64,000 nucleotides of DNA from a virus (taxonomy: Duplodnaviria; Caudoviricetes), in IMG/VR virus record IMGVR_UViG_3300032227_000318, positions 46,482-110,481 of that record, one strand, 5' to 3'. Below the pieces are notes generated by a model, which did not search any database, had not been told where the DNA came from, and worked only from the letters and a program-made list of their open reading frames with translations. The translations under genes were made by a program, and so were the position numbers. Shown one piece after another: positions 27,305 through 38,582 of this stretch (its first letter is position 1; every line of letters begins with the position of its first letter).

Positions 27305-28030
27305 TTACTCTTCTTTGAGATTGAGTTTGATCTTTGTTTGGTGATCTATTGGACACTTTCGTCCGTCTGGATACACACCTTGAAAGTAATGCTTTTCCCA
27401 TGTCTTATCTATAGGTGTATTTGGATTTTCTAACATGAGTCTATCAAAATCACCTCTACTCTTTGACCACTGCTCATAGTTCTTGGCCTCTTCTTCATGC
27501 AACTCTAGAGGTCTAACGATAGAACGAAACTCTTCAGTATACTTTCTTTCCATTGGATAGAAAAACAAGAATGGTTCAAAAGGTTCAAATACAATCTCTC
27601 TGTCTGGCTCAGTCATTATCCAGTTCATAGTGAATGTAGCTGGATTCCAATCAGTCTCAACAATACCTGTTAGTGGTGCAATGCCTCTCTTCGGATTGTT
27701 TGGTGTTCCTGATACATACAGATTTACATTTTCTGGTGTACGAACAATAAAATCAGGATGAAAAGTAACTACACCACCGCCAAAGTGTGAGACACATATT
27801 CTATCACCGCCTTCGATAGTAATATCATCAACGTGGTTGCCGCCATTCCAATTTATCTTAATGCGCTGAGAAGTCGATACTTCAAAACCATTTAGATTTG
27901 CGATTGTAAGAGGAAGACAACGGTACGCATATTTGTCTTGACTATTTTCCATCCATTCACGTTCACGAACACCCTTTCGGACATGAATAGTGCTTTGCCG
28001 ATGTATACGATATAGAATAATATCTTTCAT
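27305..28030 (-). CDS. DUF6065-like protein
   Basis: AYRCLPLTIAN, GIVETDW...FTMNW, HQTK. Confidence 0.65.
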   Translation of the reverse strand: MKDIILYRIHRQSTIHVRKGVREREWMENSQDKYAYRCLPLTIANLNGFEVSTSQRIKINWNGGNHVDDITIEGGDRICVSHFGGGVVTFHPDFIVRTPENVNLYVSGTPNNPKRGIAPLTGIVETDWNPATFTMNWIMTEPDREIVFEPFEPFLFFYPMERKYTEEFRSIVRPLELHEEEAKNYEQWSKSRGDFDRLMLENPNTPIDKTWEKHYFQGVYPDGRKCPIDHQTKIKLNLKEE

Positions 28031-28051
28031 AATATAACCTTTCAAATCAAA

Positions 28052-28495
28052 TTATGACTTCTTCCCCATAGAGGCCTTGATCATCCAGTTCAGCTTTGAA
28101 TGCGCTGTGATACGGTCTTGAAGGAAATTAGACAGTGCATAGACCTTTTGTTCTTCGGCCATCTCATAGGTCTCAACAACCACGTTCATTAAATTCTCAT
28201 TGCAAGTAAATAGGTTACTCAACATGAAAGCTGCGGTTGGAATCTTTTCGTCTTCAGATATGATTGATAGCTCCTTCATACGTGTTAACGTCTGAGGCGC
28301 AAAAGCATCCAACTGACGGATATGTTCCGCTAGTGGATCTACTGCTCCCTGATAGTCTTCATAGATAGTGGCAAAGAATTCATGGAGCTGAGGAAAATCA
28401 GAACCAATAACGTTCCAGTGGTATGCTTGTGCTTTTAGTCCTGCTGCAAAGGTTGATGCTAAAACAACCTTCAACTTTTCTACTAGTTCTTCCAT
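28052..28495 (-). CDS. dps: Dps-like ferritin
   Basis: HWNVIGSDFPQLHEFF...D.LAEHIR...WM. Confidence 0.9.
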   Translation of the reverse strand: MEELVEKLKVVLASTFAAGLKAQAYHWNVIGSDFPQLHEFFATIYEDYQGAVDPLAEHIRQLDAFAPQTLTRMKELSIISEDEKIPTAAFMLSNLFTCNENLMNVVVETYEMAEEQKVYALSNFLQDRITAHSKLNWMIKASMGKKS

Positions 28496-28526
28496 TATAT
28501 TCTCCTAATATACATCTTTATATTAA

Positions 28527-28618
28527 TGGCGGAAGGTAAGGGATTTGAACCCTTGGTACCTCTTGCGAAGTACGACGGTTTAGCAAACCGCTGCTTTCGA
28601 CCGCTCAGCCAACCTTCC
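28527..28618 (-). tRNA. tRNA-Ser(GCT)
   Basis: Cloverleaf, long variable arm, encoded CCA. Confidence 0.9.
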
Positions 28619-28619
28619 T

Positions 28620-29069
28620 TTATTCTGTAATCTCTATGTATGTATTATACTTGCCATACTCATTTACGATGTGATACAACCAACGTGCATTCTGAGGGCT
28701 AAGACGAACACAACCGTGTGATGCAGGCCGACCAAGCTTCTTTACTTCTGTTGTTGCGTGAATTGCATAACCGCCGTGAAAGAAGATAGAGTGCGGCATC
28801 GGTGCATTGTCATACTTAGATGAATAGTGCATCTTCTTTACAAGATATGGTTGATACACACCAATCGGTGTACGATATCCCTTGCGTCCAGTAGAAACAT
28901 CCCACTCATAATAATCTGTAGGAGTCTCTACATACATTTTCTGGTCGGACTTATCAACGCGAATGATCACTTCATGCTCACCAAGAGGTTCAACGCCAGC
29001 TTTAACACCTGTAGCCAGCATAAAGATTGCCGCGGCCATCACAGCCAACATAACAAAAAACTTAGTCAT
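28620..29069 (-). CDS. L,D-transpeptidase (YkuD family) with signal peptide
   Basis: VSTG, AIHAT...ASHGCVRL. Confidence 0.9.
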   Translation of the reverse strand: MTKFFVMLAVMAAAIFMLATGVKAGVEPLGEHEVIIRVDKSDQKMYVETPTDYYEWDVSTGRKGYRTPIGVYQPYLVKKMHYSSKYDNAPMPHSIFFHGGYAIHATTEVKKLGRPASHGCVRLSPQNARWLYHIVNEYGKYNTYIEITE

Positions 29070-29567
29070 TTATTCTACCTTCGTTTGCGGTAAATGTTGA
29101 ATAGCGTCTTTGTAACGGTCAGCACAGTAAGATGCTGCCCACGCATTTGGCTTCACTAGCGGCACAATGTTACACATACCACGAATGTAGCCAACAGCTT
29201 CATTTATAACACAGCTTGAACCATGCTTCATGTCTGGATTAATGTCAAGATGGATTTCAGTTTCACGATCTTCTAGAACGTCATAAAGATCCATGTATAG
29301 TTGAGCCGTCTTCATCACTTCATTCATCAGACGCATACGAGGCTTATCTTTCTGCTGATCATAGTCACGTTCACGGACAATGCCACCAAATACCTTACAA
29401 CCGTTCTTGCCGTTCTTATGAACAACGACAACGTTGATGTAGTCGGCATGCCAAACACCATCAATCTGAAAACGTTCAGAGTCGCCACCTAGATATATCT
29501 TTGTTTCGGGAGTTTGTTCTTGAATGAACGCACGAACTTCGTCCAGGTTCATGTTCTTTCTGATCAT
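29070..29567 (-). CDS. RNase H-like YkuK/DUF458 protein
   Basis: YLGGDS, EIHLDIN, AASYCAD. Confidence 0.75.
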   Translation of the reverse strand: MIRKNMNLDEVRAFIQEQTPETKIYLGGDSERFQIDGVWHADYINVVVVHKNGKNGCKVFGGIVRERDYDQQKDKPRMRLMNEVMKTAQLYMDLYDVLEDRETEIHLDINPDMKHGSSCVINEAVGYIRGMCNIVPLVKPNAWAASYCADRYKDAIQHLPQTKVE

Positions 29568-29578
29568 TGTTAAGTTCC

Positions 29579-29962
29579 TTAAAAGACCTTCTTTGCTATC
29601 GATGAATAACTTTTTGGATGAACTCCATCAGCACTAGCGAACGAAGATAAGTATACAACACCATCGCCATGTTGTCTAGCGATATTTAGAGCAATCTTTC
29701 TTGCTTTTGCGTTGTTATTGGAAAGAATCCAAATAACTTTACCAGATATTTTGTTTCTGAGGATATTAAGGTATTTGGAAAAATCTGCATTACCATCATT
29801 TGATCCGAGAGATATGACAGTAGTTTTTGAGGAAGGAATATATTTGTAAGAAACTACAAAGTTTTTGCTGTTTATGCCGACCTTTGCTATAGTCTTACAC
29901 TGCGGAGTAACAGAACCAACGCCAACAGCAATACTGTCGCCCAATATTAAACAATCAATCAT
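29579..29962 (-). CDS. SGNH/GDSL hydrolase
   Basis: GDSIA, LGSND, DGVHP. Confidence 0.8.
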   Translation of the reverse strand: MIDCLILGDSIAVGVGSVTPQCKTIAKVGINSKNFVVSYKYIPSSKTTVISLGSNDGNADFSKYLNILRNKISGKVIWILSNNNAKARKIALNIARQHGDGVVYLSSFASADGVHPKSYSSIAKKVF

Positions 29963-29978
29963 TGTTAAGTTCCTATAA

Positions 29979-30052
29979 TGGTGCCTCTATCCAGAATCGA
30001 ACTGGAGCCAATCCCCTACCAAAGGATTGTTCTACCACTATACTATAGAGGC
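29979..30052 (-). tRNA. tRNA-Thr(GGT)
   Basis: Cloverleaf with CCA. Confidence 0.9.
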
Positions 30053-30058
30053 AGTGAT

Positions 30059-30135
30059 TGGTGCGCCTGGAGAGACTCGAACTCCCAACATCCGGTTTCT
30101 AAGACCGGCGCCTCTACCAATTGGACTACAAGCGC
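30059..30135 (-). tRNA. tRNA-Leu(TAG), short variable loop
   Basis: Cloverleaf with CCA, 77 nt. Confidence 0.85.
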
Positions 30136-30140
30136 GTTAA

Positions 30141-30216
30141 TGGTGCGAGATGAGAGGGTCGAACTCCCGACATCCTGCGTGTAAAACAGGCGCTACTACC
30201 ACTGAGCTAATCTCGC
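30141..30216 (-). tRNA. tRNA-Val(TAC)
   Basis: Cloverleaf with CCA. Confidence 0.9.
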
Positions 30217-30223
30217 GTTAATT

Positions 30224-30297
30224 TGGAGCGGGTAGCGGGAATCGAACCCGCGCACTCTCCTTGGCAAGGAGAAAGGCTACCATTACATCATACCAGC
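30224..30297 (-). tRNA. tRNA-Gly(GCC)
   Basis: Cloverleaf with CCA; one acceptor mismatch. Confidence 0.85.
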
Positions 30298-30315
30298 TTA
30301 CTCTATATTTATAAT

Positions 30316-30391
30316 TGGTGCGTCATGGTAGAATCGAACTACCTTTTCCGGCTTATGAGACCAGCGGGATGTCCATCACCCCCCAAGACGC
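30316..30391 (-). tRNA. tRNA-Met/Ile2(CAT)
   Basis: Cloverleaf with CCA. Confidence 0.8.
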
Positions 30392-30515
30392 ATTTACTTA
30401 TGATTCTTGCCAAACCAAGATATTTCTTTTATTCTTGGTCCCATTGCTATCGCAGAAGCAAGACATGCTTTATATATGGCGTCATATAGTTCTTTGCTCA
30501 TGTTTATTTCCTAAA

Positions 30516-30593
30516 TGGTGCAAGGTCTTGGAATCGAACCAAGTTCTTCCGCTCTTCAGGCGGACGCTGAATTACCAAACTAGCTCACCTTGC
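30516..30593 (-). tRNA. tRNA-Phe(GAA)
   Basis: Cloverleaf with CCA; 5' end overlaps the upstream endonuclease ORF. Confidence 0.9.
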
Positions 30594-31207
30594 ATTATTC
30601 TATTATACTCGTTTTTCTCAATAATTACAATCTTTTTTTCTGGGTGCTGTTTCAGAACTGCTTCCATCTTTCTCTTATCATCGCCCCACCAGTAACCTTT
30701 TATCTCAAGGAATATATCTTGATCTATCAATTGTAGATCAGGCGTGTACGATTTTTTCTTGCCGTCCAATTCATATTCCCAAACATCTCTATGAACAGCA
30801 GGTTTATACCAATCAATTCCTAACTCATCAAGTTTCTTGGCTATGTTTAGTTCCCAAGTGCCTTGTAGTTTCTGTCCTTTATATTCAAACCATTTACATT
30901 TACCGCCACGATTCTTTACACTCTGTTCAACAGACAATCTTTTACGAGCTTCTTCCCCCATTCTTGTCGGAACAAATGAACCATTAGCTATCTTAGCCTG
31001 TATTGTCTGGCTGTTTTTCTCAGCAGTTCTTCGTATTTCTTCAGAAGTTTCTTTAGTCAGCCCTTTTCTGTGGCTAGGACGACCTTTAGATTTGCTTCCT
31101 GTTTTTTGTCCGTGAGCAACGCCGTCTTTTGAATGCGATCTCCAAACATGAGCAACCTTAGCTTTATCGCTCTTTAGTTCTTTGTTACATATTGGGCAAT
31201 AGATCAT
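30572..31207 (-). CDS. Putative homing endonuclease (C2H2 finger plus PD-(D/E)xK domain)
   Basis: CPIC...H...H; YTPD...FLEIKGY. Confidence 0.75.
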   Translation of the reverse strand: MIYCPICNKELKSDKAKVAHVWRSHSKDGVAHGQKTGSKSKGRPSHRKGLTKETSEEIRRTAEKNSQTIQAKIANGSFVPTRMGEEARKRLSVEQSVKNRGGKCKWFEYKGQKLQGTWELNIAKKLDELGIDWYKPAVHRDVWEYELDGKKKSYTPDLQLIDQDIFLEIKGYWWGDDKRKMEAVLKQHPEKKIVIIEKNEYNRIMQGELVW

Positions 31208-31234
31208 AGTTCCTCCTATGATCTATTTATATAA

Positions 31235-31269
31235 CAGGCGTATGTACGCACCAGCTATACCAAGGCAGC
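31235..31269 (-). pseudogene. Truncated tRNA 5' half (Phe-like), ends at G34
   Basis: gctgcct-tg-gtat-agctggtgc-gtac-a-tacgc-ctg, then late promoter. Confidence 0.7.
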
Positions 31270-31275
31270 AGTTAT

Positions 31276-31422
31276 TCAATCACGAAGCAACTGAGGAGCT
31301 GATTCCGTCAAGTTCTTCTTTTCGTATTCTGCAAGTTTAATAGAGTATTGTTCGTTTGTCAACCCATGCCAACCGATACACTTACCAGTCGGACTTCTTC
31401 CACAACCACAATCTTTAGACAT
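31276..31422 (-). CDS. 48-aa CDGSH-like Fe-S/zinc protein
   Basis: CGCGRSPTGKCIGWH; GAGG SD (manual translation). Confidence 0.55.
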   Translation of the reverse strand: MSKDCGCGRSPTGKCIGWHGLTNEQYSIKLAEYEKKNLTESAPQLLRD

Positions 31423-31442
31423 TTATAACCTCATTCGTTAAA

Positions 31443-31530
31443 TGGCGGAAGGTGTAGGATTCGAACCCACGGAACCTTTCGGTTCTTCGCATTTCAAGTG
31501 CGATGCAATAGACCACTCTACCAACCTTCC
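31443..31530 (-). tRNA. tRNA-Ser(TGA)
   Basis: Cloverleaf, variable arm, CCA. Confidence 0.9.
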
Positions 31531-31695
31531 AATTTCGATGCGATTTCTTAAAGTGGTTACGCCCTCCACTATTGTGATAAACGAGAGTTTCCAGTCAAGT
31601 ACAGTCCACTCACAAACCTCTAGCTGCGGGATGACGGAACGCAGTACTTGCCGCCATGATGTATATATTACACTAAATCCCGCATATTGTCAAGT

Positions 31696-32055
31696 CTACC
31701 TTTTCTTCTTCCCTAAGATTTCAACCTTGACTGTGCAAATTCCACCGCAACCAATCTTTCTAGCTGCTGCTCTTGATAGGTCTAAATGTCTGCCTCTAAT
31801 GAATGGGCCCCTATCATTTATTACTACTATTACTGATCTTCCTTTGTGTGTAACCCTAAGTCTTGTGCCAAAGGGTAGTGTCTTATGTGCTGCTGTTAAA
31901 GCATTTGGATTGAATCTTTGCCCGCTTGCAGTGATTTTATTTCTACTACATTCACCAGGCTTAGCGCAATCGTACCATGATGCTTTCATAGTAGACGCAT
32001 AACTGGGCGCTGCAATTAAAAATAATGCAGCTAAGGTTGTTACTAATAGTTTCAT
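31696..32055 (-). CDS. rlpA: RlpA-like DPBB lytic transglycosylase
   Basis: ASWY, TASG, TAAHKTLPFGT, INDRGPF, DLS. Confidence 0.9.
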   Translation of the reverse strand: MKLLVTTLAALFLIAAPSYASTMKASWYDCAKPGECSRNKITASGQRFNPNALTAAHKTLPFGTRLRVTHKGRSVIVVINDRGPFIRGRHLDLSRAAARKIGCGGICTVKVEILGKKKR

Positions 32056-32071
32056 TATAGTTTTCCTTTAG

Positions 32072-32165
32072 TGGAGCATCTGACAGGATTCGAACCTGCA
32101 TCGGATATTTCTATCCACGTCCAGTTACCTTACTCTCCGTTCGTAGCGGAGGGGGCTACAGATGC
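32072..32165 (-). tRNA. Atypical tRNA-Arg(ACG)-like RNA: no canonical D arm, very long variable region
   Basis: 7-bp acceptor, CTCCG-ctACGaa-CGGAG, canonical T arm, CCA. Confidence 0.7.
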
Positions 32166-32171
32166 ATAGTT

Positions 32172-32246
32172 TGGAGGGGCTAACCAGATTTGAACTGATA
32201 CCTCAAGGATTTGCAATCCCGTGCATTACCGTTTTGCTATAGCCCC
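32172..32246 (-). tRNA. tRNA-Cys(GCA)
   Basis: Cloverleaf, U73, CCA. Confidence 0.9.
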
Positions 32247-32250
32247 GTAT

Positions 32251-32324
32251 TGGCTGCTCATCATGGATTCGAACCACAATACCCTGAGTCAGAGTCAGGA
32301 GTCCTACCGTTAGACGAATGAGCA
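32251..32324 (-). tRNA. tRNA-Gln(CTG)
   Basis: Cloverleaf with CCA. Confidence 0.9.
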
Positions 32325-32329
32325 ACAAA

Positions 32330-32403
32330 TGGTACTGCCTAGTGGAATCGAACCACCGTATTGCGTTCCACAGACGCACGTTCTACCATTGAACTAAGAC
32401 AGC
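32330..32403 (-). tRNA. tRNA-His(GTG), no G-1, U72/A73
   Basis: Cloverleaf with CCA. Confidence 0.9.
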
Positions 32404-32408
32404 ATGAT

Positions 32409-32485
32409 TGGTTGCGGGTGTGAGTGCTGCCCTCACTATCTCCGGCTTATGAGACCGGCGGCTTATCTACCTTGCCCTACCCACT
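32409..32485 (-). tRNA. tRNA-fMet-like (CAT), degenerate T loop
   Basis: A1xA72 mismatch, CAT anticodon, T loop GGCAGCA. Confidence 0.65.
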
Positions 32486-32528
32486 TTATTTCTTATAGAT
32501 TCTGAAATCTTTTTCTTTGTTAATGAAT

Positions 32529-32603
32529 TGGTAGAGCATACGGGAGTCGAACCCGTCTCTCATCCTTGAAAGGGATGTGACCTAACCGATAGTCGAATGC
32601 TCC
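32529..32603 (-). tRNA. tRNA-Glu(TTC)
   Basis: Cloverleaf with CCA. Confidence 0.9.
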
Positions 32604-32604
32604 A

Positions 32605-32679
32605 TGGAGAACCCTCTGGGATTCGAACCCAGGACAGACGGATTAAAAGCCCGCTACTCTACCACTGAGTTAAGGGTTC
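32605..32679 (-). tRNA. tRNA-Lys(TTT)
   Basis: Cloverleaf with CCA. Confidence 0.9.
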
Positions 32680-32684
32680 ATTGT

Positions 32685-32758
32685 TGGCTGGGAGACTAGG
32701 ATTCGAACCTAGATAGCAGGAATCAAAATCCTGCGTCCTACCTTTAGACGATCTCCCA
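32685..32758 (-). tRNA. tRNA-Gln(TTG)
   Basis: Cloverleaf with CCA. Confidence 0.9.
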
Positions 32759-32764
32759 ATGAAA

Positions 32765-32838
32765 TGGTAGTTCCTACTGGTTTCGATCCAGTGATGCGCG
32801 GTTATCGGCCGCGAGTTTTACCATTAAACTAAGGAACC
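32765..32838 (-). tRNA. tRNA-Ile(GAT)
   Basis: Cloverleaf with CCA; C33 and ATCGAAA T loop; overlaps the end of the HNH ORF. Confidence 0.85.
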
Positions 32839-33318
32839 ATATTTCTTTTTTCTATCTCTGCCTCGCCATGTGGTAGTTTGACTGTGGCAGTTTGGACAAA
32901 GACATTCTAAATTTTCTCTATTGTTATTAGTTCTAATGCCGTCTTTGTGTTCAAGTTCAAGTGTTAATGGCTGATCTAACCATCGGTCATTACCACATCT
33001 ATTACACTTGAAATTCTGTTCTTCTAAGACTTTTAGACGAATGGCCGCTCTGCTTTTGAAATCCGTGGTATCTCTATTCTTTCTTAGAATAGCATAATGC
33101 TCACTGAAAGCTACATTCGGCCCTATTTTCACACCTTTGTTCCAAGCAGTTCTCTCGCCTGTCTTAAAGGCGTGATTAGGATCAAAGTCAATACCCCTAA
33201 TCTTTTTCTTTATAGGTCCGATACAAGCATCCACATGTCTATCAAAGTTATTTACGGTGATGTTTCTATCACATTTATCACAGTGTTTAGTTGGCTTTTT
33301 ACTCATAGTTGTCTCCAT
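32824..33318 (-). CDS. HNH homing endonuclease
   Basis: CNRCG...LELEHKDG...NN..NL..LCPNCHSQT. Confidence 0.9.
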   Translation of the reverse strand: METTMSKKPTKHCDKCDRNITVNNFDRHVDACIGPIKKKIRGIDFDPNHAFKTGERTAWNKGVKIGPNVAFSEHYAILRKNRDTTDFKSRAAIRLKVLEEQNFKCNRCGNDRWLDQPLTLELEHKDGIRTNNNRENLECLCPNCHSQTTTWRGRDRKKKYGSLV

Positions 33319-33339
33319 AGTAGCACATCTATTTAGTAA

Positions 33340-33371
33340 AAGCGCCTACTCTACCATTGAGCTACAAGCCA
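33340..33371 (-). pseudogene. Truncated tRNA 5' half (Ile-like), ends in the anticodon loop
   Basis: tggcttg-ta-gctc-aatggta-gagt-a-ggcgc-tt, then TACTAAATA. Confidence 0.7.
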
Positions 33372-33497
33372 ATATATTCCGTACACCTTGCAGGTTTAGC
33401 CCTTTCGCGAACTGAGTCAGCAATCCTGCATTCGTAAGCTTTCCCTCATGTTGGGCTTACTAGGTCTCCCCTGTCTTATCTAGAAAGACGGGTAATT

Positions 33498-33583
33498 TGG
33501 TGGGTGAGAAAGGATTCGAACCTTCTAAGTCATAGACAACGGATTTACAGTCCGCCACAACACGCCGTCGTTGCCGCTCACCC
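33498..33583 (-). tRNA. tRNA-Tyr(GTA)
   Basis: Cloverleaf, variable arm, CCA. Confidence 0.9.
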
Positions 33584-33592
33584 GAACAAGTA

Positions 33593-33769
33593 TTATTCTT
33601 TTTCTGGCCACTGAACTATTAAGTTTGGGTCAGTAACCTTTACATCATTAATACGAATGCCACCCTGTTCAATCAATCGTCTAGCTGCACTCTTGCTTTT
33701 TGCAAATCCAGCAGCAATAACTATGTCGACTAACGAAACAGTTCTTGGTACAGTTATTTCAGGTAACAT
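33593..33769 (-). CDS. 58-aa stand-alone S4 RNA-binding domain resembling the TyrRS C-terminal domain
   Basis: LVDIVIAAGFAKSKSAARRLIEQGGIRINDVKVTD; AGGAG SD (manual translation). Confidence 0.8.
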   Translation of the reverse strand: MLPEITVPRTVSLVDIVIAAGFAKSKSAARRLIEQGGIRINDVKVTDPNLIVQWPEKE

Positions 33770-33860
33770 TGTATTCTCCTAAAAAGCGCCAACCTCACAG
33801 TTATTCGGCTGGCTGTTTGACATTCATGACGCGCATCACTGCTACGTAGTCAGATCAAAT

Positions 33861-33943
33861 TGGTGCCAAGGGAGGGAATCGAACCCCCGATGTTTGTATG
33901 CCTCCTTACAAGAGAGGTGCTGTCGCCGCTGAGCCACCTTGGC
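33861..33943 (-). tRNA. tRNA-Thr(TGT) with ~12-nt variable region
   Basis: Cloverleaf with CCA; G1 is the last base of the HNH stop codon. Confidence 0.8.
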
Positions 33944-34359
33944 TAATAACTTTTACCTTCAGCATATCGCTGTCTTCTATAGTGTCTGCCATTACCTTTA
34001 TTTGCGCCTTTGTAAGTTGGCGTTTGTGAATGGCAGTTTGGACAAATCAAACATAGATTTTCTATGTTGTTATTCTCACTGTTGCCGTCTTTATGTTCTA
34101 AATCAAATACGATTGATTTATTGTTCCATTCAGTTATACCACAAGTATAGCATTTGTTGCCGTATGTGTCAATGATATATTTTTTTATCTGTCTTTTACC
34201 AGGAACAACACCCTCTTCAAGCCAATTTTTTATCTTGTCTTTACGAGTATATTCATGTTGACACTTTTGTGAACAATATTTACCAGTAGATGAATATACA
34301 TTTCTTACTGTGTGTTCTTTATTACAATTTTGACAGACTATGATTCCTGATTTACCCAT
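33943..34359 (-). CDS. HNH homing endonuclease
   Basis: CQNC..YCSQKC; CYTCG...LEHKDGN..NN..NLCLICPNCHSQT. Confidence 0.9.
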   Translation of the reverse strand: MGKSGIIVCQNCNKEHTVRNVYSSTGKYCSQKCQHEYTRKDKIKNWLEEGVVPGKRQIKKYIIDTYGNKCYTCGITEWNNKSIVFDLEHKDGNSENNNIENLCLICPNCHSQTPTYKGANKGNGRHYRRQRYAEGKSY

Positions 34360-34419
34360 GTTATACCTCTATGTTTTGGTATAACTATTTATAATACACA
34401 AATGTTCTACCATTTGGAT

Positions 34420-34494
34420 TGGTGGAGGATAACGGAATCGAACCGTTTTCTCTGCCGTGCAAAGGCAGCGTTTCCCCAATAGCACTGATCCCCC
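34420..34494 (-). tRNA. tRNA-Ala(TGC)
   Basis: G3:U70 pair, CCA. Confidence 0.9.
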
Positions 34495-34568
34495 GTTATT
34501 TACATGCACAAATCTTCATAAAGGACAGTATGTTTCCTGTGTGTGGCAAGATCACCATCACGATCATC

Positions 34569-34597
34569 ATTGTACCACAGCGTGGTAAAAAAGTCAA
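34569..34597 (-). promoter_or_regulatory. Internal sigma70 promoter TTGACT-N17-TACAAT
   Basis: Near-consensus hexamers and spacing. Confidence 0.6.
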
Positions 34598-34630
34598 CTA
34601 TAATATCAAACATTCTATTTCCTTTTGTAT

Positions 34631-34704
34631 TGGCACCAGTGCAAGGATTCGAACCCTGACAAGCAGTTTTGGAGGCTGCCGTGCTACCGTTACACTACAC
34701 TGAT
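34631..34704 (-). tRNA. tRNA-Trp(CCA)
   Basis: Cloverleaf with CCA. Confidence 0.9.
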
Positions 34705-34710
34705 ATGAAT

Positions 34711-34787
34711 TGGTCGGAGTGGTAGGATTCGAACCCACGACCCTTCGCTCCCAAAGCGAATGCTCTACCAGACTGAGCCACACTCCG
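34711..34787 (-). tRNA. tRNA-Pro(TGG)
   Basis: Cloverleaf with CCA. Confidence 0.9.
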
Positions 34788-34793
34788 TTATAC

Positions 34794-34867
34794 TGGCGAC
34801 CTATGCGAGACTCAAACTCGCTACACCTCTTAGACAGAGAGGTGTGATATCCATTCACTAATAGGCC
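34794..34867 (-). tRNA. tRNA-Asp(GTC)
   Basis: Cloverleaf, G73, CCA. Confidence 0.85.
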
Positions 34868-34873
34868 TTGAAT

Positions 34874-34948
34874 TGGAGAACCAGGTGAGAATTGAACTCA
34901 CGACACGCGGGTTAAGAGGTCGCTACTCTACCACTGAGTTACTGGTCC
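34874..34948 (-). tRNA. tRNA-Lys(CTT)
   Basis: Cloverleaf with CCA; weak anticodon stem. Confidence 0.8.
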
Positions 34949-34954
34949 TTGAAT

Positions 34955-35030
34955 TGGCTGGATAGCTTGGATTCGAACCAAGGACATCCTCGTTAACAGC
35001 GAGGCGCTCTACCGCTGGAGCTACTATCCA
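34955..35030 (-). tRNA. tRNA-Asn(GTT)
   Basis: Cloverleaf with CCA. Confidence 0.9.
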
Positions 35031-35032
35031 AT

Positions 35033-35174
35033 ATTCTACTTTCGTCAGTAGTCACATCATCATATGAGATTCGAACTCATGCCTGCGCCGCTTCTGCGGC
35101 ACCGTGCTTCCCCTACACCAATGAATGACTTGTCGCGGTGGCCACCTGCTAGTGACTACTGACGAAAGTAGAAT
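35033..35174 (-). ncRNA. Structured RNA: perfect 23-bp stem enclosing an anticodon-less tRNA-like domain
   Basis: Inverted repeat 35033-35055/35152-35174; D-like arm, tetraloop arm and TTCGAAT T arm inside. Confidence 0.7.
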
Positions 35175-35320
35175 GTGAGGCTGTGCTGAGTCACAGACAC
35201 TCACTGGATATTTCGCTACTCAGTGCGCCTTTGAGAAGAGCAAAGGTACTCATAGGAACTTAACAATGTCAATCAGCGACCGCGTCTATCTTGCCCGCGC
35301 GGCTGGGAAACTCTCTCTTA

Positions 35321-35403
35321 CATACTGGATATAGTGTCTCAAGGTGCTGGTTTCAAGTCTTTTCTTATTCTTTTTTCGTATATCTGCTATGCACTAGACA
35401 CAA
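35321..35403 (-). promoter_or_regulatory. Promoter TTGAAA-N16-CTATAT feeding the downstream tRNA array
   Basis: Same element as at 5252, 5651 and 38489. Confidence 0.65.
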
Positions 35404-35407
35404 CCCT

Positions 35408-35446
35408 GAAAATGAAAGAACCCCGAAACTTTCGCTCCGGGGTTCT
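35408..35446 (-). terminator. Intrinsic terminator (attenuator)
   Basis: AGAACCCCGGAGC-GAAA-GUUUCGGGGUUCU followed by UUCAUUUU. Confidence 0.85.
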
Positions 35447-35469
35447 AAGAAACTAAGTCTATCTAAGAC

Positions 35470-35550
35470 TTAATACATAGAACCCCCTACACCTGCCCAT
35501 GATGGCTGGCGTGTCTCTTGATTAATCGTGAAGGGGCAATAACGTTTCAT
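35470..35550 (-). CDS. 26-aa leader peptide MKRYCPFTINQETRQPSWAGVGGSMY
   Basis: Manual translation; 22 consecutive non-repeating codons; 3' end complementary to the terminator 5' arm. Confidence 0.7.
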   Translation of the reverse strand: MKRYCPFTINQETRQPSWAGVGGSMY

Positions 35551-35574
35551 TTCCGTCTTTCTTAAACTGTACTC

Positions 35575-35615
35575 TATTTAGTATACATCCTAGCAGGATT
35601 TTATTAGGTTGTCAA
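35575..35615 (-). promoter_or_regulatory. Tandem sigma70 (TTGACA-N17-TAGGAT) and late (TACTAAATA) promoters for the leader
   Basis: Consensus matches immediately upstream of the leader ORF. Confidence 0.65.
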
Positions 35616-35624
35616 CTTTTTTTT

Positions 35625-35701
35625 TGGTGCGAAAGGTGGGACTTGAACCCACAGAACTCGGTTTTTGAGACCGATACGTATACCTATTCCGTCACTCTCG
35701 C
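35625..35701 (-). tRNA. tRNA-Leu(CAA), short variable loop
   Basis: Cloverleaf with CCA, 77 nt. Confidence 0.85.
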
Positions 35702-35705
35702 TTAT

Positions 35706-35797
35706 TGGTCGGCGTGCTTGGATTCGAACCAAGTCAAGAACACTCATCTAGTGCTAAAGGGATTATAAGGCCCTCCCGTGTACCAACACCCACGCCG
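35706..35797 (-). tRNA. tRNA-Ile(TAT) with long variable arm and minimal D arm
   Basis: 7-bp acceptor, ctTATaa loop, variable arm, T arm, CCA. Confidence 0.75.
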
Positions 35798-35801
35798 TTA
35801 T

Positions 35802-36251
35802 TTACATTACAGAAAAGAATCCAAGTGTGGCATCATTATATTTCTTGTCTCTTTTTCTATCCCAACCACGCTTTGCTCTTTCACTTCTGTCTTGTGATGT
35901 AAGTTTTGCTGCTGACGCTTTACCACCAATTGAGCCAAACTTATCTTTCACTTTATCATAACCTTTTCTGGCATTCTCTTTGGTAAAGCCACCAATGCCA
36001 CCTTTTCTCATATTATATGTCTTATTAGTGTTAAAGTCAACAGTTAGTTCGGCTTCTAGCTTGTATGCTTCATCTTTCGATTCAGTGATGAATAAGACTT
36101 CTTTTTTGAAGTTGTCTTTTCCATATTTTCTTAATGCTTCTTCAATAGCACGACCTGAACCAAAATATACATCACTTGGATTGTTTGTTTTATGAACACC
36201 AATATAGTGTTTATTGTTGATTAGATTTATTGTTTTATATACAGTATACAT
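35802..36251 (-). CDS. GIY-YIG (Seg-like) homing endonuclease
   Basis: VYKTIN...HYIGVH...YFGSG...YN...GG.GG. Confidence 0.85.
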   Translation of the reverse strand: MYTVYKTINLINNKHYIGVHKTNNPSDVYFGSGRAIEEALRKYGKDNFKKEVLFITESKDEAYKLEAELTVDFNTNKTYNMRKGGIGGFTKENARKGYDKVKDKFGSIGGKASAAKLTSQDRSERAKRGWDRKRDKKYNDATLGFFSVM

Positions 36252-36286
36252 CCATTATCTCCTCAGTGGATGTATTTATAGTAAAA

Positions 36287-36362
36287 TGGTGCGACCACCA
36301 GGACTCGAACCCGGAACCAGACAGGTATGAACTGTCAGCTCTAACCGTTGAGCTATAGTCGC
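36287..36362 (-). tRNA. tRNA-Met/Ile2(CAT)
   Basis: Cloverleaf with CCA. Confidence 0.85.
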
Positions 36363-36366
36363 TTAT

Positions 36367-36453
36367 TGGTGCGGGCGGTGGGACTCGAACCCACAACGTT
36401 TCTATTGTAGCAAATTTTAAGTCTGCCGCGGCTCACCATTACGCCACGCCCGC
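36367..36453 (-). tRNA. tRNA-Leu(TAA)
   Basis: Cloverleaf, variable arm, CCA. Confidence 0.9.
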
Positions 36454-36461
36454 TTTATTGT

Positions 36462-36728
36462 TTAGTCCTTCATTGCGCCGGACATGAAGCCCTTGCGAGG
36501 ATCACCCCACTCAGTCTCAGCACGAACACGAACATATCGCGCGCGAGTGTCGGCCGTATTAGGATTAGGCACAGTGACCCACGGGTTCTTACCCTTCAAC
36601 CAGGCTTTCTGCAAGAGTGTCCACTTATCAATAGCGGAACGTTCACGCTTGATAGCCTTTGACAGGCTGCGATTTGCTTCACGCTCACCCTTAGAGGTGT
36701 AAGCAGACTTAGACTTCGGTGCAGACAT
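36462..36728 (-). CDS. Hypothetical basic protein
   Basis: YTSKGER...AWLKGKNPWVTVPNPN; GGAG SD. Confidence 0.6.
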   Translation of the reverse strand: MSAPKSKSAYTSKGEREANRSLSKAIKRERSAIDKWTLLQKAWLKGKNPWVTVPNPNTADTRARYVRVRAETEWGDPRKGFMSGAMKD

Positions 36729-36752
36729 TCACTTTCTCCATTATACTATAAT

Positions 36753-36828
36753 TGGCGACCCCTGCACGACTCGAACGTGCGACACCCTGTTTAGAAGACA
36801 GGTACTCTATCCACTGAGCTAAGGGGCC
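36753..36828 (-). tRNA. tRNA-Arg(TCT)
   Basis: Cloverleaf, A20, CCA. Confidence 0.9.
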
Positions 36829-36840
36829 ATTGAAACTTAT

Positions 36841-37026
36841 TTATGCTACTTCGTAGGCAAATCCCTTGACATAGCAACCATCTAGAAACCGATGGCCAGT
36901 CTTATGGGCATCATCACTATCTACGAAGAACTGTTCCCAGATACAATCATCATTCTCAAAACAGTATAGCATGAATCCTACACGGTTGTCAAGAATATAA
37001 AAATCTACATCATAAGACCTAACCAT
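36841..37026 (-). CDS. Hypothetical protein
   Basis: Translationally coupled ORF. Confidence 0.5.
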   Translation of the reverse strand: MVRSYDVDFYILDNRVGFMLYCFENDDCIWEQFFVDSDDAHKTGHRFLDGCYVKGFAYEVA

Positions 37027-37289
37027 TATGCGACCTCACGAAGCTTAATGCCAGTGATTCGTTCATCCGCAATGAGAGAAACGGGATACTGAGGATTACC
37101 TGTGTGCAAACGAAAAGTACCAACGGGATCATGTCGCTCACTTGCTACTACCTTTCCAGATTTGATAGACACATTATTCATCACACCATACTTATAATGT
37201 GTGCGAACATGGATCATATCGCCAACTTTGATTTTCCACTTAGTCTTGATCATCTTGTATATCTTACTTGGTATTGATCGCCTTGTCAA
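37026..37289 (-). CDS. Hypothetical protein
   Basis: ORF in operon. Confidence 0.45.
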   Translation of the reverse strand: MTRRSIPSKIYKMIKTKWKIKVGDMIHVRTHYKYGVMNNVSIKSGKVVASERHDPVGTFRLHTGNPQYPVSLIADERITGIKLREVA

Positions 37290-37794
37290 GCTTGAAAAGC
37301 TTACCGTTCATGTACATCTTACCATTCTTGAACTTGATCTTTTCTGACTGGAGCATCACCTGATAGAACAGGTAGAGCGAACGGTCACGACCATAAGCCT
37401 CAATTTCCCAAGGCCAGTTGAAGTAGTCTTCCATAGAGTTAGTCAGTTTGAAAGTCTTACCCTGCCACTTTGCAGTGATCAACTCATTAGACAACTCACC
37501 CCTTGCGTACTGCTTCACATGCACCATTTCATGCGCGAGGCACTGGAGCATTTTGTACCGCTGCATTCCAGGTCTGATACCAATCTCAAAGGACTTAGGG
37601 CGCCGTTCAGAATCGACAGGGTAACAGCCACCCTCATTGCGCCCCTGATCCTCAAGCCGAATTTCAATATCAAGCTTTTCTGTAAGTCTGGTGCCCATGA
37701 TATAGTGGGCAAAGAAAGCAGCAGCGAACTTGAGTTCAGCCTTGCACATAGCCTTGGTTCTGCCGACGATATTAATATCCATTGAGTTCACCAT
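37264..37794 (-). CDS. HExxH zinc metallopeptidase-like protein
   Basis: LAHEMVHVKQY...PWEIEAY. Confidence 0.8.
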   Translation of the reverse strand: MVNSMDINIVGRTKAMCKAELKFAAAFFAHYIMGTRLTEKLDIEIRLEDQGRNEGGCYPVDSERRPKSFEIGIRPGMQRYKMLQCLAHEMVHVKQYARGELSNELITAKWQGKTFKLTNSMEDYFNWPWEIEAYGRDRSLYLFYQVMLQSEKIKFKNGKMYMNGKLFKLDKAINTK

Positions 37795-38021
37795 TCATAT
37801 ACATTGCATAGAAGCCCCAAATCGTGAAGCCGAGGCCGATTGTGCCCATCACAATCTGAAGTCCGAGACCAGAAGTGGCTGAGGCGCCGATAACCATGCC
37901 GAGCAGAAACCTGAGCATTAGAATATCACCGAGAAAACATTGTACCAGAACCAAATCAGAAACGCGAACGAGAGTCCGCAGAAAGTGACACGGAACAGAA
38001 TATCGAAAGAACGATTAAGCA

Positions 38022-38213
38022 TTAACGAAGTTCCCTAAGACGCAACTTAACCCACAGTTCAATTTCATCAGAATGATGGTGATATTCCTCGACGGTCATT
38101 TCAGAACCTTCGGCCAGAAAAGCAGCATCAAGCTGAGTCATCATCCATTCAGCTTCACCTTCAATCTGATCTTCCGAAGTGTAGTGCTTAGACATGTTTA
38201 TTCTCCTTACCAT
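38022..38213 (-). CDS. Hypothetical protein
   Basis: ORF with AGGAG SD. Confidence 0.5.
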   Translation of the reverse strand: MVRRINMSKHYTSEDQIEGEAEWMMTQLDAAFLAEGSEMTVEEYHHHSDEIELWVKLRLRELR

Positions 38214-38389
38214 TCAATACGATACTTGGGCATCGGGTAGTCCCGACGAAAGAACTTATTTTCATCCATCATAGCAGTACCAGACATATTCTCATACCGC
38301 TTAGAGAAGACAACCTTACCACTTTCATTTTCAGTAACAACAAGAAGGTATTCACCCCAACGATATGTCATATTAATCTCCGTTGTTAT

Positions 38390-38582
38390 ATACTATAGAT
38401 AAGATCGGCAAGTCGGTTTTTCAAGAGCAGCAAACGCAACTCTGATATGCGCGGAACGCATGTCTTGTCTGAACGTATCACCGTGTCTCATATACTGGAT
38501 ATAGTGATGCGACCCTCTCTTTTCAATGTCGAATAATGCATAGCCCTTATGCGCCATGTGCATATCGTAAGCCTTTGATTTC
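38390..38582 (-). promoter_or_regulatory. Two tandem promoters, each with an ATGCG-N5-CGCAT-type palindrome, plus an IHF-like site
   Basis: TTGAAA boxes ending at 38424 and 38526, each 22 bp from a palindrome. Confidence 0.65.

Follow-up and report, generated by a model that had tools for sequence, protein, structure and literature searches.

A candidate leader-peptide attenuator in the tRNA array of an uncultured T4-like freshwater phage

The tRNA array and its phage

The window analyzed here is a 64,000-nt stretch of a 110-kb IMG/VR virus contig (IMGVR_UViG_3300032227_000318) that is rated 67% complete. According to ARAGORN, the window contains 23 tRNA genes downstream of the element described below, rather than the 25 counted in the first-pass annotation, and five more lie just upstream of it. 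The array is thus divided into a five-gene block and a 23-gene block, and the division falls exactly at the terminator of the element, which is the sole strong intrinsic-terminator-like hairpin in the 11-kb tRNA region (window 27500-38500).

The DNA polymerase of the phage is a gp43-type enzyme whose closest matches are cyanomyovirus polymerases (~50% identity), and on this sequence evidence the phage is T4-like, in agreement with the late-promoter motifs of the region. A T5-like identity, which the size of the polymerase and the homing endonucleases among the tRNA genes had suggested, is ruled out by the gp43-type polymerase. The sequencing runs containing the stretch are lake and freshwater metagenomes, and its origin is an uncultured freshwater phage. 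The element is absent from the isolated phages in the collection, and BLAST searches with the element and with the whole tRNA region returned tRNA matches only.

One tRNA gene of the array, tRNA-Ile with the anticodon UAU, has a long extra arm and a length of 92 nt that is kept in relatives; its best Rfam match is tRNA-Sec, at a sub-threshold 27.9 bits against a threshold of 47. In addition, a segment just before tRNA-Asn is variable among the relatives in the alignment, and at the corresponding place one of them, L023, has an odd tRNA with a two-base anticodon (ARAGORN).

Anatomy of the element

The element lies on the minus strand throughout (Table 1). The first-pass annotation had described sigma70 and late promoters before the leader, a 26-codon ORF, an exact complementarity of the 3′ end of this ORF to a segment beyond an inner hairpin, and a 13-bp GAAA-loop terminator with a U-rich tail, all of which were recovered at the positions listed.

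Table 1. Positions of the element, its parts and neighboring features in the window
Feature	Position	Strand	Remark
Sigma70-type promoter P1, TTGACA-17-TAGGAT, TG-extended -10	35587-35615	-	Score 10 of 12, plus TG
T4-type late-promoter motif	35574-35582	-	24 nt upstream of the start codon
A-rich 5′ UTR with weak Shine-Dalgarno-like GGA	35551-35573	-	
Leader ORF P0001, 26 codons and TAA	35470-35550	-	Open and in frame in 13 relatives
Region 1, C-rich, codons 5-7, predicted partner of region 2	35531-35537	-	MFE folds of the nascent prefix
Central hairpin in the ORF, codons 13-21, possible pause hairpin	35489-35512	-	Predicted in 13 of 13 sequences
Region 2, antiterminator 5′ strand, codons 22-25	35478-35486	-	Exact complement of region 3
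Inner hairpin from the stop codon, stacked within the antiterminator	35452-35474	-	7-9 bp stem
Region 3, terminator 5′ arm and antiterminator 3′ strand (shared)	35439-35447	-	
Intrinsic terminator, GAAA loop, U-rich tail	35404-35446	-	13-bp stem, 35446-35417
Sigma70-type promoter P2, directly downstream of the terminator	35328-35356	-	Hexamers conserved, spacer variable
Structured RNA of ~150 nt	35165-35317	-	
Variable segment before tRNA-Asn	35033-35174	-	
tRNA-Ile(UAU)	35706-35797	-	
Late-promoter motif	36273-36280	-	
Late-promoter motif	34386-34393	-	
Late-promoter motif	33329-33337	-	
Late-promoter motif	31224-31231	-	
Late-promoter motif	30306-30313	-	No ORF identified

A promoter-like hexamer pair is found directly 5′ of the leader in every relative, in a register that differs by clade, and the aligned position of the late motif holds either the variant of the window or the exact T4 late consensus TATAAATA. 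The late promoter and the leader ORF are spaced as in genuine protein genes of the array. The final 12 nt of the 5′ UTR, including ATG AAA, are invariant in the 13 sequences compared, an invariance that is partly forced because some search patterns required this stretch. Pairing of the leader Shine-Dalgarno sequence with the anti-Shine-Dalgarno sequence amounts to -2.1 kcal/mol, which is weaker than in 82% of the genes of the phage, most of which, unlike the leader, have clear GGAG-type sites.

The terminator stem has 13 pairs, of which seven are G-C, and closes on a 4-nt loop. Its 3′ arm, region 4, is a near-copy of region 2, and both compete for region 3, so the four-region layout is that of the trp attenuator. 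The leader ORF ends 23 nt before the terminator stem, and only 5 nt separate the end of region 2 from the stop codon. The footprint of a ribosome is large enough to cover a sequence 5 nt before a stop codon, and with this textbook size a ribosome terminating on the leader would cover region 2.

Several properties set the element apart within the contig. The 110 kb contain 14 terminator-like hairpins, and in none of the other 13 is 6 nt or more of the 3′ arm repeated upstream, as it is here; the contig has no second copy of the element. Compared with shuffled sequences, the RNA between the predicted start and the tail has a folding z score of -5.9. In an Rfam search of positions 28000-37500 with E values up to 1, all convincing matches were tRNA genes and none fell inside 35404-35615; at the same cutoff, the covariance models of the Trp, His, Leu, Thr and Phe leaders and of the T-box did not match the element.

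Relatives of the element

Pattern scans of viral and metagenome contigs yielded 25 loci, among which the element occurs in 13 distinct versions; these come from independent assemblies. The first pattern required regions 2, 3 and 4, so the invariance of these parts is partly forced. Later ones were built on the start region and the inner hairpin stem, which forces the invariance of the stem in four relatives. The informative variants L023, L025 and L030 were retrieved with patterns that left regions 2-4 free. Four matches of the first pattern (L003, L005, L008, and L012) were unrelated chance hits, and a pattern derived from the 3′ end of tRNA-Leu matched unrelated phages. Anchoring a scan on the inner hairpin yielded nothing new apart from a truncated duplicate of L022. 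In 80 loci near relatives of the helicase (60-65% identity, one 86%), nhmmer detected no homologue of the element; these loci are uninformative as a comparison because only four of them carry tRNA arrays, which are differently placed.

Wherever a contig includes the flanks, tRNA-Leu(CAA) precedes the element and tRNA-Asn(GUU) comes after it, with the tRNAs for Lys, Asp, Pro, and Trp next in order. This position in the array is kept despite extra ORFs upstream or replaced cargo downstream; in L022, for example, a 72-residue ORF takes the place of the cargo. L004, L009, L010, L015, L002, and L011 carry insertions that separate tRNA-Leu(CAA) from the leader promoter; one group of these has a short Cys-rich ORF, and L002 and L011 carry 1.4-2 kb of extra DNA. 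The unit of promoter, leader, and terminator is intact in all these relatives.

A check of RNA libraries, based on Logan contigs, gave a 217-nt freshwater metatranscriptome contig from a close relative with a 3-nt insertion variant. The contig matches window 35351-35541 and extends from codon 4 of the leader through the terminator to part of the P2 spacer, and because its depth is ~4 and DNA carry-over is possible, it demonstrates neither transcription nor read-through.

Conservation of the leader ORF

The leader ORF is open in all 13 sequences with a length of 26-28 codons, and the other two frames contain stops. A peptide of 26 residues falls below the customary length cutoff of gene callers. 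The ATG, the second codon AAA, and the position of the stop are fixed in all of them. Four separate indel events within the ORF all involve 3 nt, whereas those outside the ORF in the same alignment involve 1-2 nt. Variable columns are evenly spread over the three codon positions (15, 14, and 14). The dN/dS ratio of the ORF ranges from 0.2 to 0.97, lying mostly at 0.4-0.7 in deep comparisons and nearing 1 in close pairs. Eight residues are invariant (Met, Lys, Thr, Asn, Gln, Pro, Trp, and Gly), and the peptide has a fixed T-x-N-Q block in addition to its fixed Trp. Several conserved residues show synonymous third-position changes, and the synonymous sites in region 2 are frozen in 11 of the 13 sequences.

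This pattern, in which the frame is strictly kept, the sequence is loose, and RNA constraints overlap the coding sequence, resembles what is expected of a translated leader, and it would also be compatible with a functional micropeptide. The in-frame conservation of the ORF and its weak Shine-Dalgarno sequence both bear on the predicted translation. The stalling window expected for an attenuator contains no run or cluster of one codon type: within codons 2-18, no residue occurs more than twice, and the relatives have at most a tandem Asn, apart from one with four Gln residues. The leader shows no more than a slight excess of rare codons (P = 0.08), which are located in the paired regions.

Competing pairings of the terminator and antiterminator

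Both helices were scored on the alignment of the 13 sequences. The antiterminator helix is 97.4% paired, with two compensatory pairs: a G-C pair is replaced by A-U in L025, and an A-U pair by G-C in L023 and L030. Pairing amounts to 97.6% in the terminator helix and 89% in the central hairpin, the latter with three pairs changed on both sides; taken together, these two are 94.5% paired, with four pairs changed on both sides. When the partner strand was slid by 1-3 columns as a control, pairing decreased to 15-58%. The stem of the inner hairpin is invariant, and its loop differs in length and sequence. L023 and L030 each have one mismatch or small internal loop in the antiterminator, and the helix is therefore imperfect there.

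The most telling variant is L025, where region 3 has a C-to-U change and regions 2 and 4 each have the matching G-to-A change; in region 2, the substitution converts one Gly codon into another. This change on three strands is explained only by the pairing of both region 2 and region 4 with region 3. Covarying terminator and antiterminator pairs in relatives, which the first-pass annotation had put forward as a check, were thus found, although the covariation consists of few events among 13 related sequences.

The same two states are obtained when the 13 sequences are folded: all of them adopt the antiterminator fold if region 4 is left out, and 12 of the 13 complete RNAs adopt the terminator fold. 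The terminator state is 2-9 kcal/mol more stable than the antiterminator state, as expected for a kinetically controlled switch. In the nascent prefix before region 3 emerges, both the window and most relatives are predicted to pair region 1 with a run of G residues in region 2; the partner segment differs in L023 and L030, with no single register kept, and this is the least certain of the modelled pairings. A pairing between the start-codon region and the U-rich tail appears in the fold of the window and is absent from the relatives.

Downstream promoters and cargo

In the 11 sequences that could be aligned there, P2 has conserved hexamers and a variable spacer, and it lies 60-90 nt after the terminator. 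L022 has a different promoter-like hexamer pair before its different cargo. Further late-type motifs are found inside the array before homing-endonuclease ORFs. Because P2 and these motifs lie within the array, the downstream tRNAs can be transcribed independently of read-through. The switch would therefore at most add read-through transcription, modulating the expression of the array rather than gating it. The proposal of the first-pass annotation that the element controls the array stands only in part: late or boosted expression is plausible, but gating is not, since the conserved P2 follows the terminator. Sigma70-type promoters of T4-like phages are shut off late in infection. The late motif before the leader makes a boost in the late phase the output that we would consider most plausible.

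Of five further late-promoter motifs in the region (Table 1), four lie 11-27 nt upstream of homing-endonuclease ORFs that are scattered among the tRNA genes and belong to the GIY-YIG, HNH (two), and PD-(D/E)XK-like (one) types. A conserved structured RNA of ~150 nt directly follows P2. Its stems, for example a hairpin at ~35225-35250 and a long stem at ~35185-35235, change on both sides between clades, and it has no Rfam match with E values up to 1; L022 has its 72-residue ORF in this place. By analogy with the non-tRNA species of the T4 tRNA cluster, it may represent a stable RNA.

Explanations for the element

If the 26-28-residue peptide were itself the product, the unit would be an ordinary small-protein gene with its own promoters and a plain terminator, and the pairing of regions 2 and 3 would either affect only the mRNA, through its stability or the termination of translation, or have no consequence. 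The kept frame, the eight invariant residues with the T-x-N-Q block and Trp, the synonymous changes at conserved residues, and dN/dS values below 1 in most comparisons (0.2-0.75) are in line with such a gene, as are a layout of late promoter and ORF that is the same as in neighboring protein genes and a new promoter immediately after the unit. However, this explanation accounts neither for the change of regions 2 and 4 together with region 3 nor for the frozen synonymous sites of region 2, variable columns are as frequent at third as at other codon positions, dN/dS nears 1 in close pairs, and the peptide has no family matches; we therefore regard it as improbable. It is still less probable that an RNA-binding protein or the RNA fold by itself decides between the two states and that the ORF is incidental, in which case the terminated transcript of ~160 nt might also serve as a small RNA, as does the Sinorhizobium trp attenuator RNA. 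The transcript is strongly structured, the invariant inner stem with its variable loop is what would be expected of a protein-binding hairpin, and the Shine-Dalgarno sequence is weak. Moreover, independent functions are possible for liberated attenuator RNAs and for leader peptides (PMC6614838, PMC7968998), and T4-like tRNA clusters encode stable RNAs to which no function is assigned, such as that of the species I RNA gene mentioned in PMC2330249. Against this stand the four ORF indels, all of them multiples of three with none such outside, the frame that is open in all 13 sequences between a fixed start and a fixed stop, and the lack of an Rfam family match with E values up to 1.

The attenuator architecture claimed in the first-pass annotation, in contrast, is supported by the comparison of the relatives: a short ORF whose frame is maintained, mutually exclusive pairings with compensatory changes, the same two folds, and an unchanged position in the array. 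The element is probably a leader-peptide transcription attenuator, operated by the ribosome, within the tRNA array of a T4-like phage. The points that weigh against this assignment are the weak Shine-Dalgarno sequence, the absence of a run of one codon, the presence of P2 after the terminator and of late-type motifs inside the array, the shifting register of the pairing between regions 1 and 2, the two antiterminator mismatches, and the small number of covariation events. Translation of the ORF, the direction of control, the stalling window, and the signal that slows the ribosome are deduced from the geometry of the element and the textbook model of attenuators, which suggest the following course of events. 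Transcripts would enter from the sigma70-type P1 and the T4 late-type promoter, and probably also from the upstream tRNA block. Upon prompt translation of the 26 codons, a ribosome at the stop codon would cover region 2, allowing regions 3 and 4 to form the terminator and transcription to stop. A ribosome delayed in approximately codons 3-18 would leave region 2 free to pair with region 3, stacked on the inner hairpin, and once this antiterminator had formed, the polymerase would continue towards tRNA-Asn and the remaining array. In the case that no ribosome is present, regions 1 and 2 would probably pair, resulting in termination by default. The switch would provide additional array transcription, for which slow decoding in the late phase of infection is the most plausible occasion.

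The signal to which such an attenuator would respond may be slow decoding in general, or a delay at Asn and Gln, the conserved pair that lies in the stalling window just ahead of tRNA-Asn. The first-pass annotation had gone further, proposing that the leader is selected to contain nearly every amino acid and codon once, so that the array is induced whenever any one tRNA is lost, whether by an anticodon nuclease, by starvation, or by decay. Its counts for the leader are correct, namely 17 kinds of amino acids, 23 distinct codons, and 22 codons or 12 residues before the first repeat. Against 26-codon windows of the phage's own genes as a baseline, both the 17 amino-acid kinds and the 23 distinct codons have P = 0.03, and the 22 codons before a repeat have P ~0.001, although this statistic was picked after seeing the data. 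The leaders of the relatives contain 15-19 kinds, and in one clade 19 of the 20 occur in 27 residues (P = 0.0008). Furthermore, phage tRNAs are known counter-measures to tRNA-cleaving defences (PMC10264068, PMC11555353). The diversity of the leader is nevertheless largely due to the eight invariant residues, which are all of different kinds: when these are fixed, the variable positions are no more diverse than expected by chance in seven of eight lineages (P = 0.06-0.67). Leu, the second most frequent residue in the proteins of the phage, is absent from nine of the 13 leaders and Asp from seven, and beyond approximately codon 18 a ribosome already occupies region 2, so that the codons there are unable to signal. 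Non-redundancy of codons in relatives, another check suggested at the outset, is not conserved, with a tandem AAT AAT in three clades and 20-25 distinct codons per leader. The reported match of leader codons to downstream tRNAs is at the background level (20 of 25 versus 76%, P = 0.41). Likewise, the reported avoidance of codons read by upstream tRNAs is not significant, since these, with ATG, make up 8% of the phage's codons (P ~0.1-0.4), and the leaders of nine of the 13 relatives have an AGG codon. It also counts against this proposal that known attenuators respond weakly when an amino acid is represented by a single codon. A designed sampling of all tRNAs is thus not supported, and the proposal as a whole seems unlikely. 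An attenuator that acts as a general sensor of decoding speed and feeds back on the phage's own tRNA supply is a somewhat less doubtful but still tentative possibility. Slowed leader ribosomes would then lead to late and read-through transcription into the 23-gene tRNA block, and the ribosomes could be slowed when any of several tRNAs runs short, for instance through cleavage by host anticodon nucleases.

Relation to known regulatory systems

Leader-peptide attenuation is a textbook mechanism of bacterial operons for amino-acid biosynthesis. The trpL, hisL, leuL, thrL, pheL, and ilv leaders share with the phage element a short leader ORF that is followed by an intrinsic terminator, a common strand of antiterminator and terminator, a possible pairing of regions 1 and 2, a stop codon at which a terminating ribosome covers region 2, and a terminator that is thermodynamically favored over an antiterminator formed first. 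Unlike these enterobacterial leaders, the phage element has no codon run for one amino acid and no sequence or Rfam match to them, precedes tRNAs and structured RNAs rather than biosynthetic enzymes, and is viral, with late-type and sigma70-type promoters and a second promoter after the terminator. Judged by its sequence, it appears to have the structural features that define an attenuator, without the defining codon run. A possible response to several kinds of slow codons would liken it to the multivalent attenuation of ilvGMEDA and thr, whose leaders contain 3-15 codons for each amino acid sensed, whereas most residues occur once or twice in the phage leader. In the coupling of the pyrBI/pyrE type, the leader ORF extends into or past the terminator, and a ribosome close behind the polymerase blocks the hairpin, but the phage ORF stops short of it by the 23 nt given above.

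Other systems are similar in some respects. T-box riboswitches also link tRNA status to read-through at a terminator-antiterminator switch; however, they bind uncharged tRNA directly, without an ORF, and regulate genes for synthetases and amino acids, and no T-box match was found here. The arrest peptides TnaC and SecM and the Erm leaders could be regarded as analogous in that a short ORF with few invariant residues, including Trp, lets the state of translation control downstream expression. Their motifs and spacings appear to be absent from the phage element, and they act through Rho access or the unmasking of a ribosome-binding site rather than an intrinsic terminator and antiterminator.

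A genomic parallel is the T4 tRNA cluster, which is likewise T4-like, with homing-endonuclease genes and non-tRNA stable RNAs interspersed, several promoter classes, and long read-through transcripts. In PMC2330249, which cites Broida and Abelson on this cluster, transcription is described as continuing through the whole cluster and ending at a terminator that follows the species I RNA gene, and that paper mentions no leader ORF or terminator-antiterminator switch in the cluster. A full-text literature search revealed no leader-peptide attenuator reported either from phages or ahead of tRNA genes. Infection is rescued by phage tRNAs when host defences cleave tRNAs (PMC10264068, PMC11555353, PMC12409363), and the paper proposing phage tRNAs as counter-defence does not discuss how these tRNAs are regulated.

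Concluding remarks

The element described here is small, self-contained, and conserved, and would show a known mechanism at work where it was not expected. Provided that the switch functions as proposed, the virus would gauge the decoding by ribosomes and adjust the transcription of its own tRNA genes. Such a capacity would bear on the old question of why large phages carry tRNA arrays, as well as on the rescue of phages by their tRNAs from tRNA-cleaving defences. Should the reading of the leader as a general sensor of decoding speed also be true, it would constitute a homeostat from translation to tRNA transcription and a trigger of counter-defence, which have not been described for any tRNA genes.
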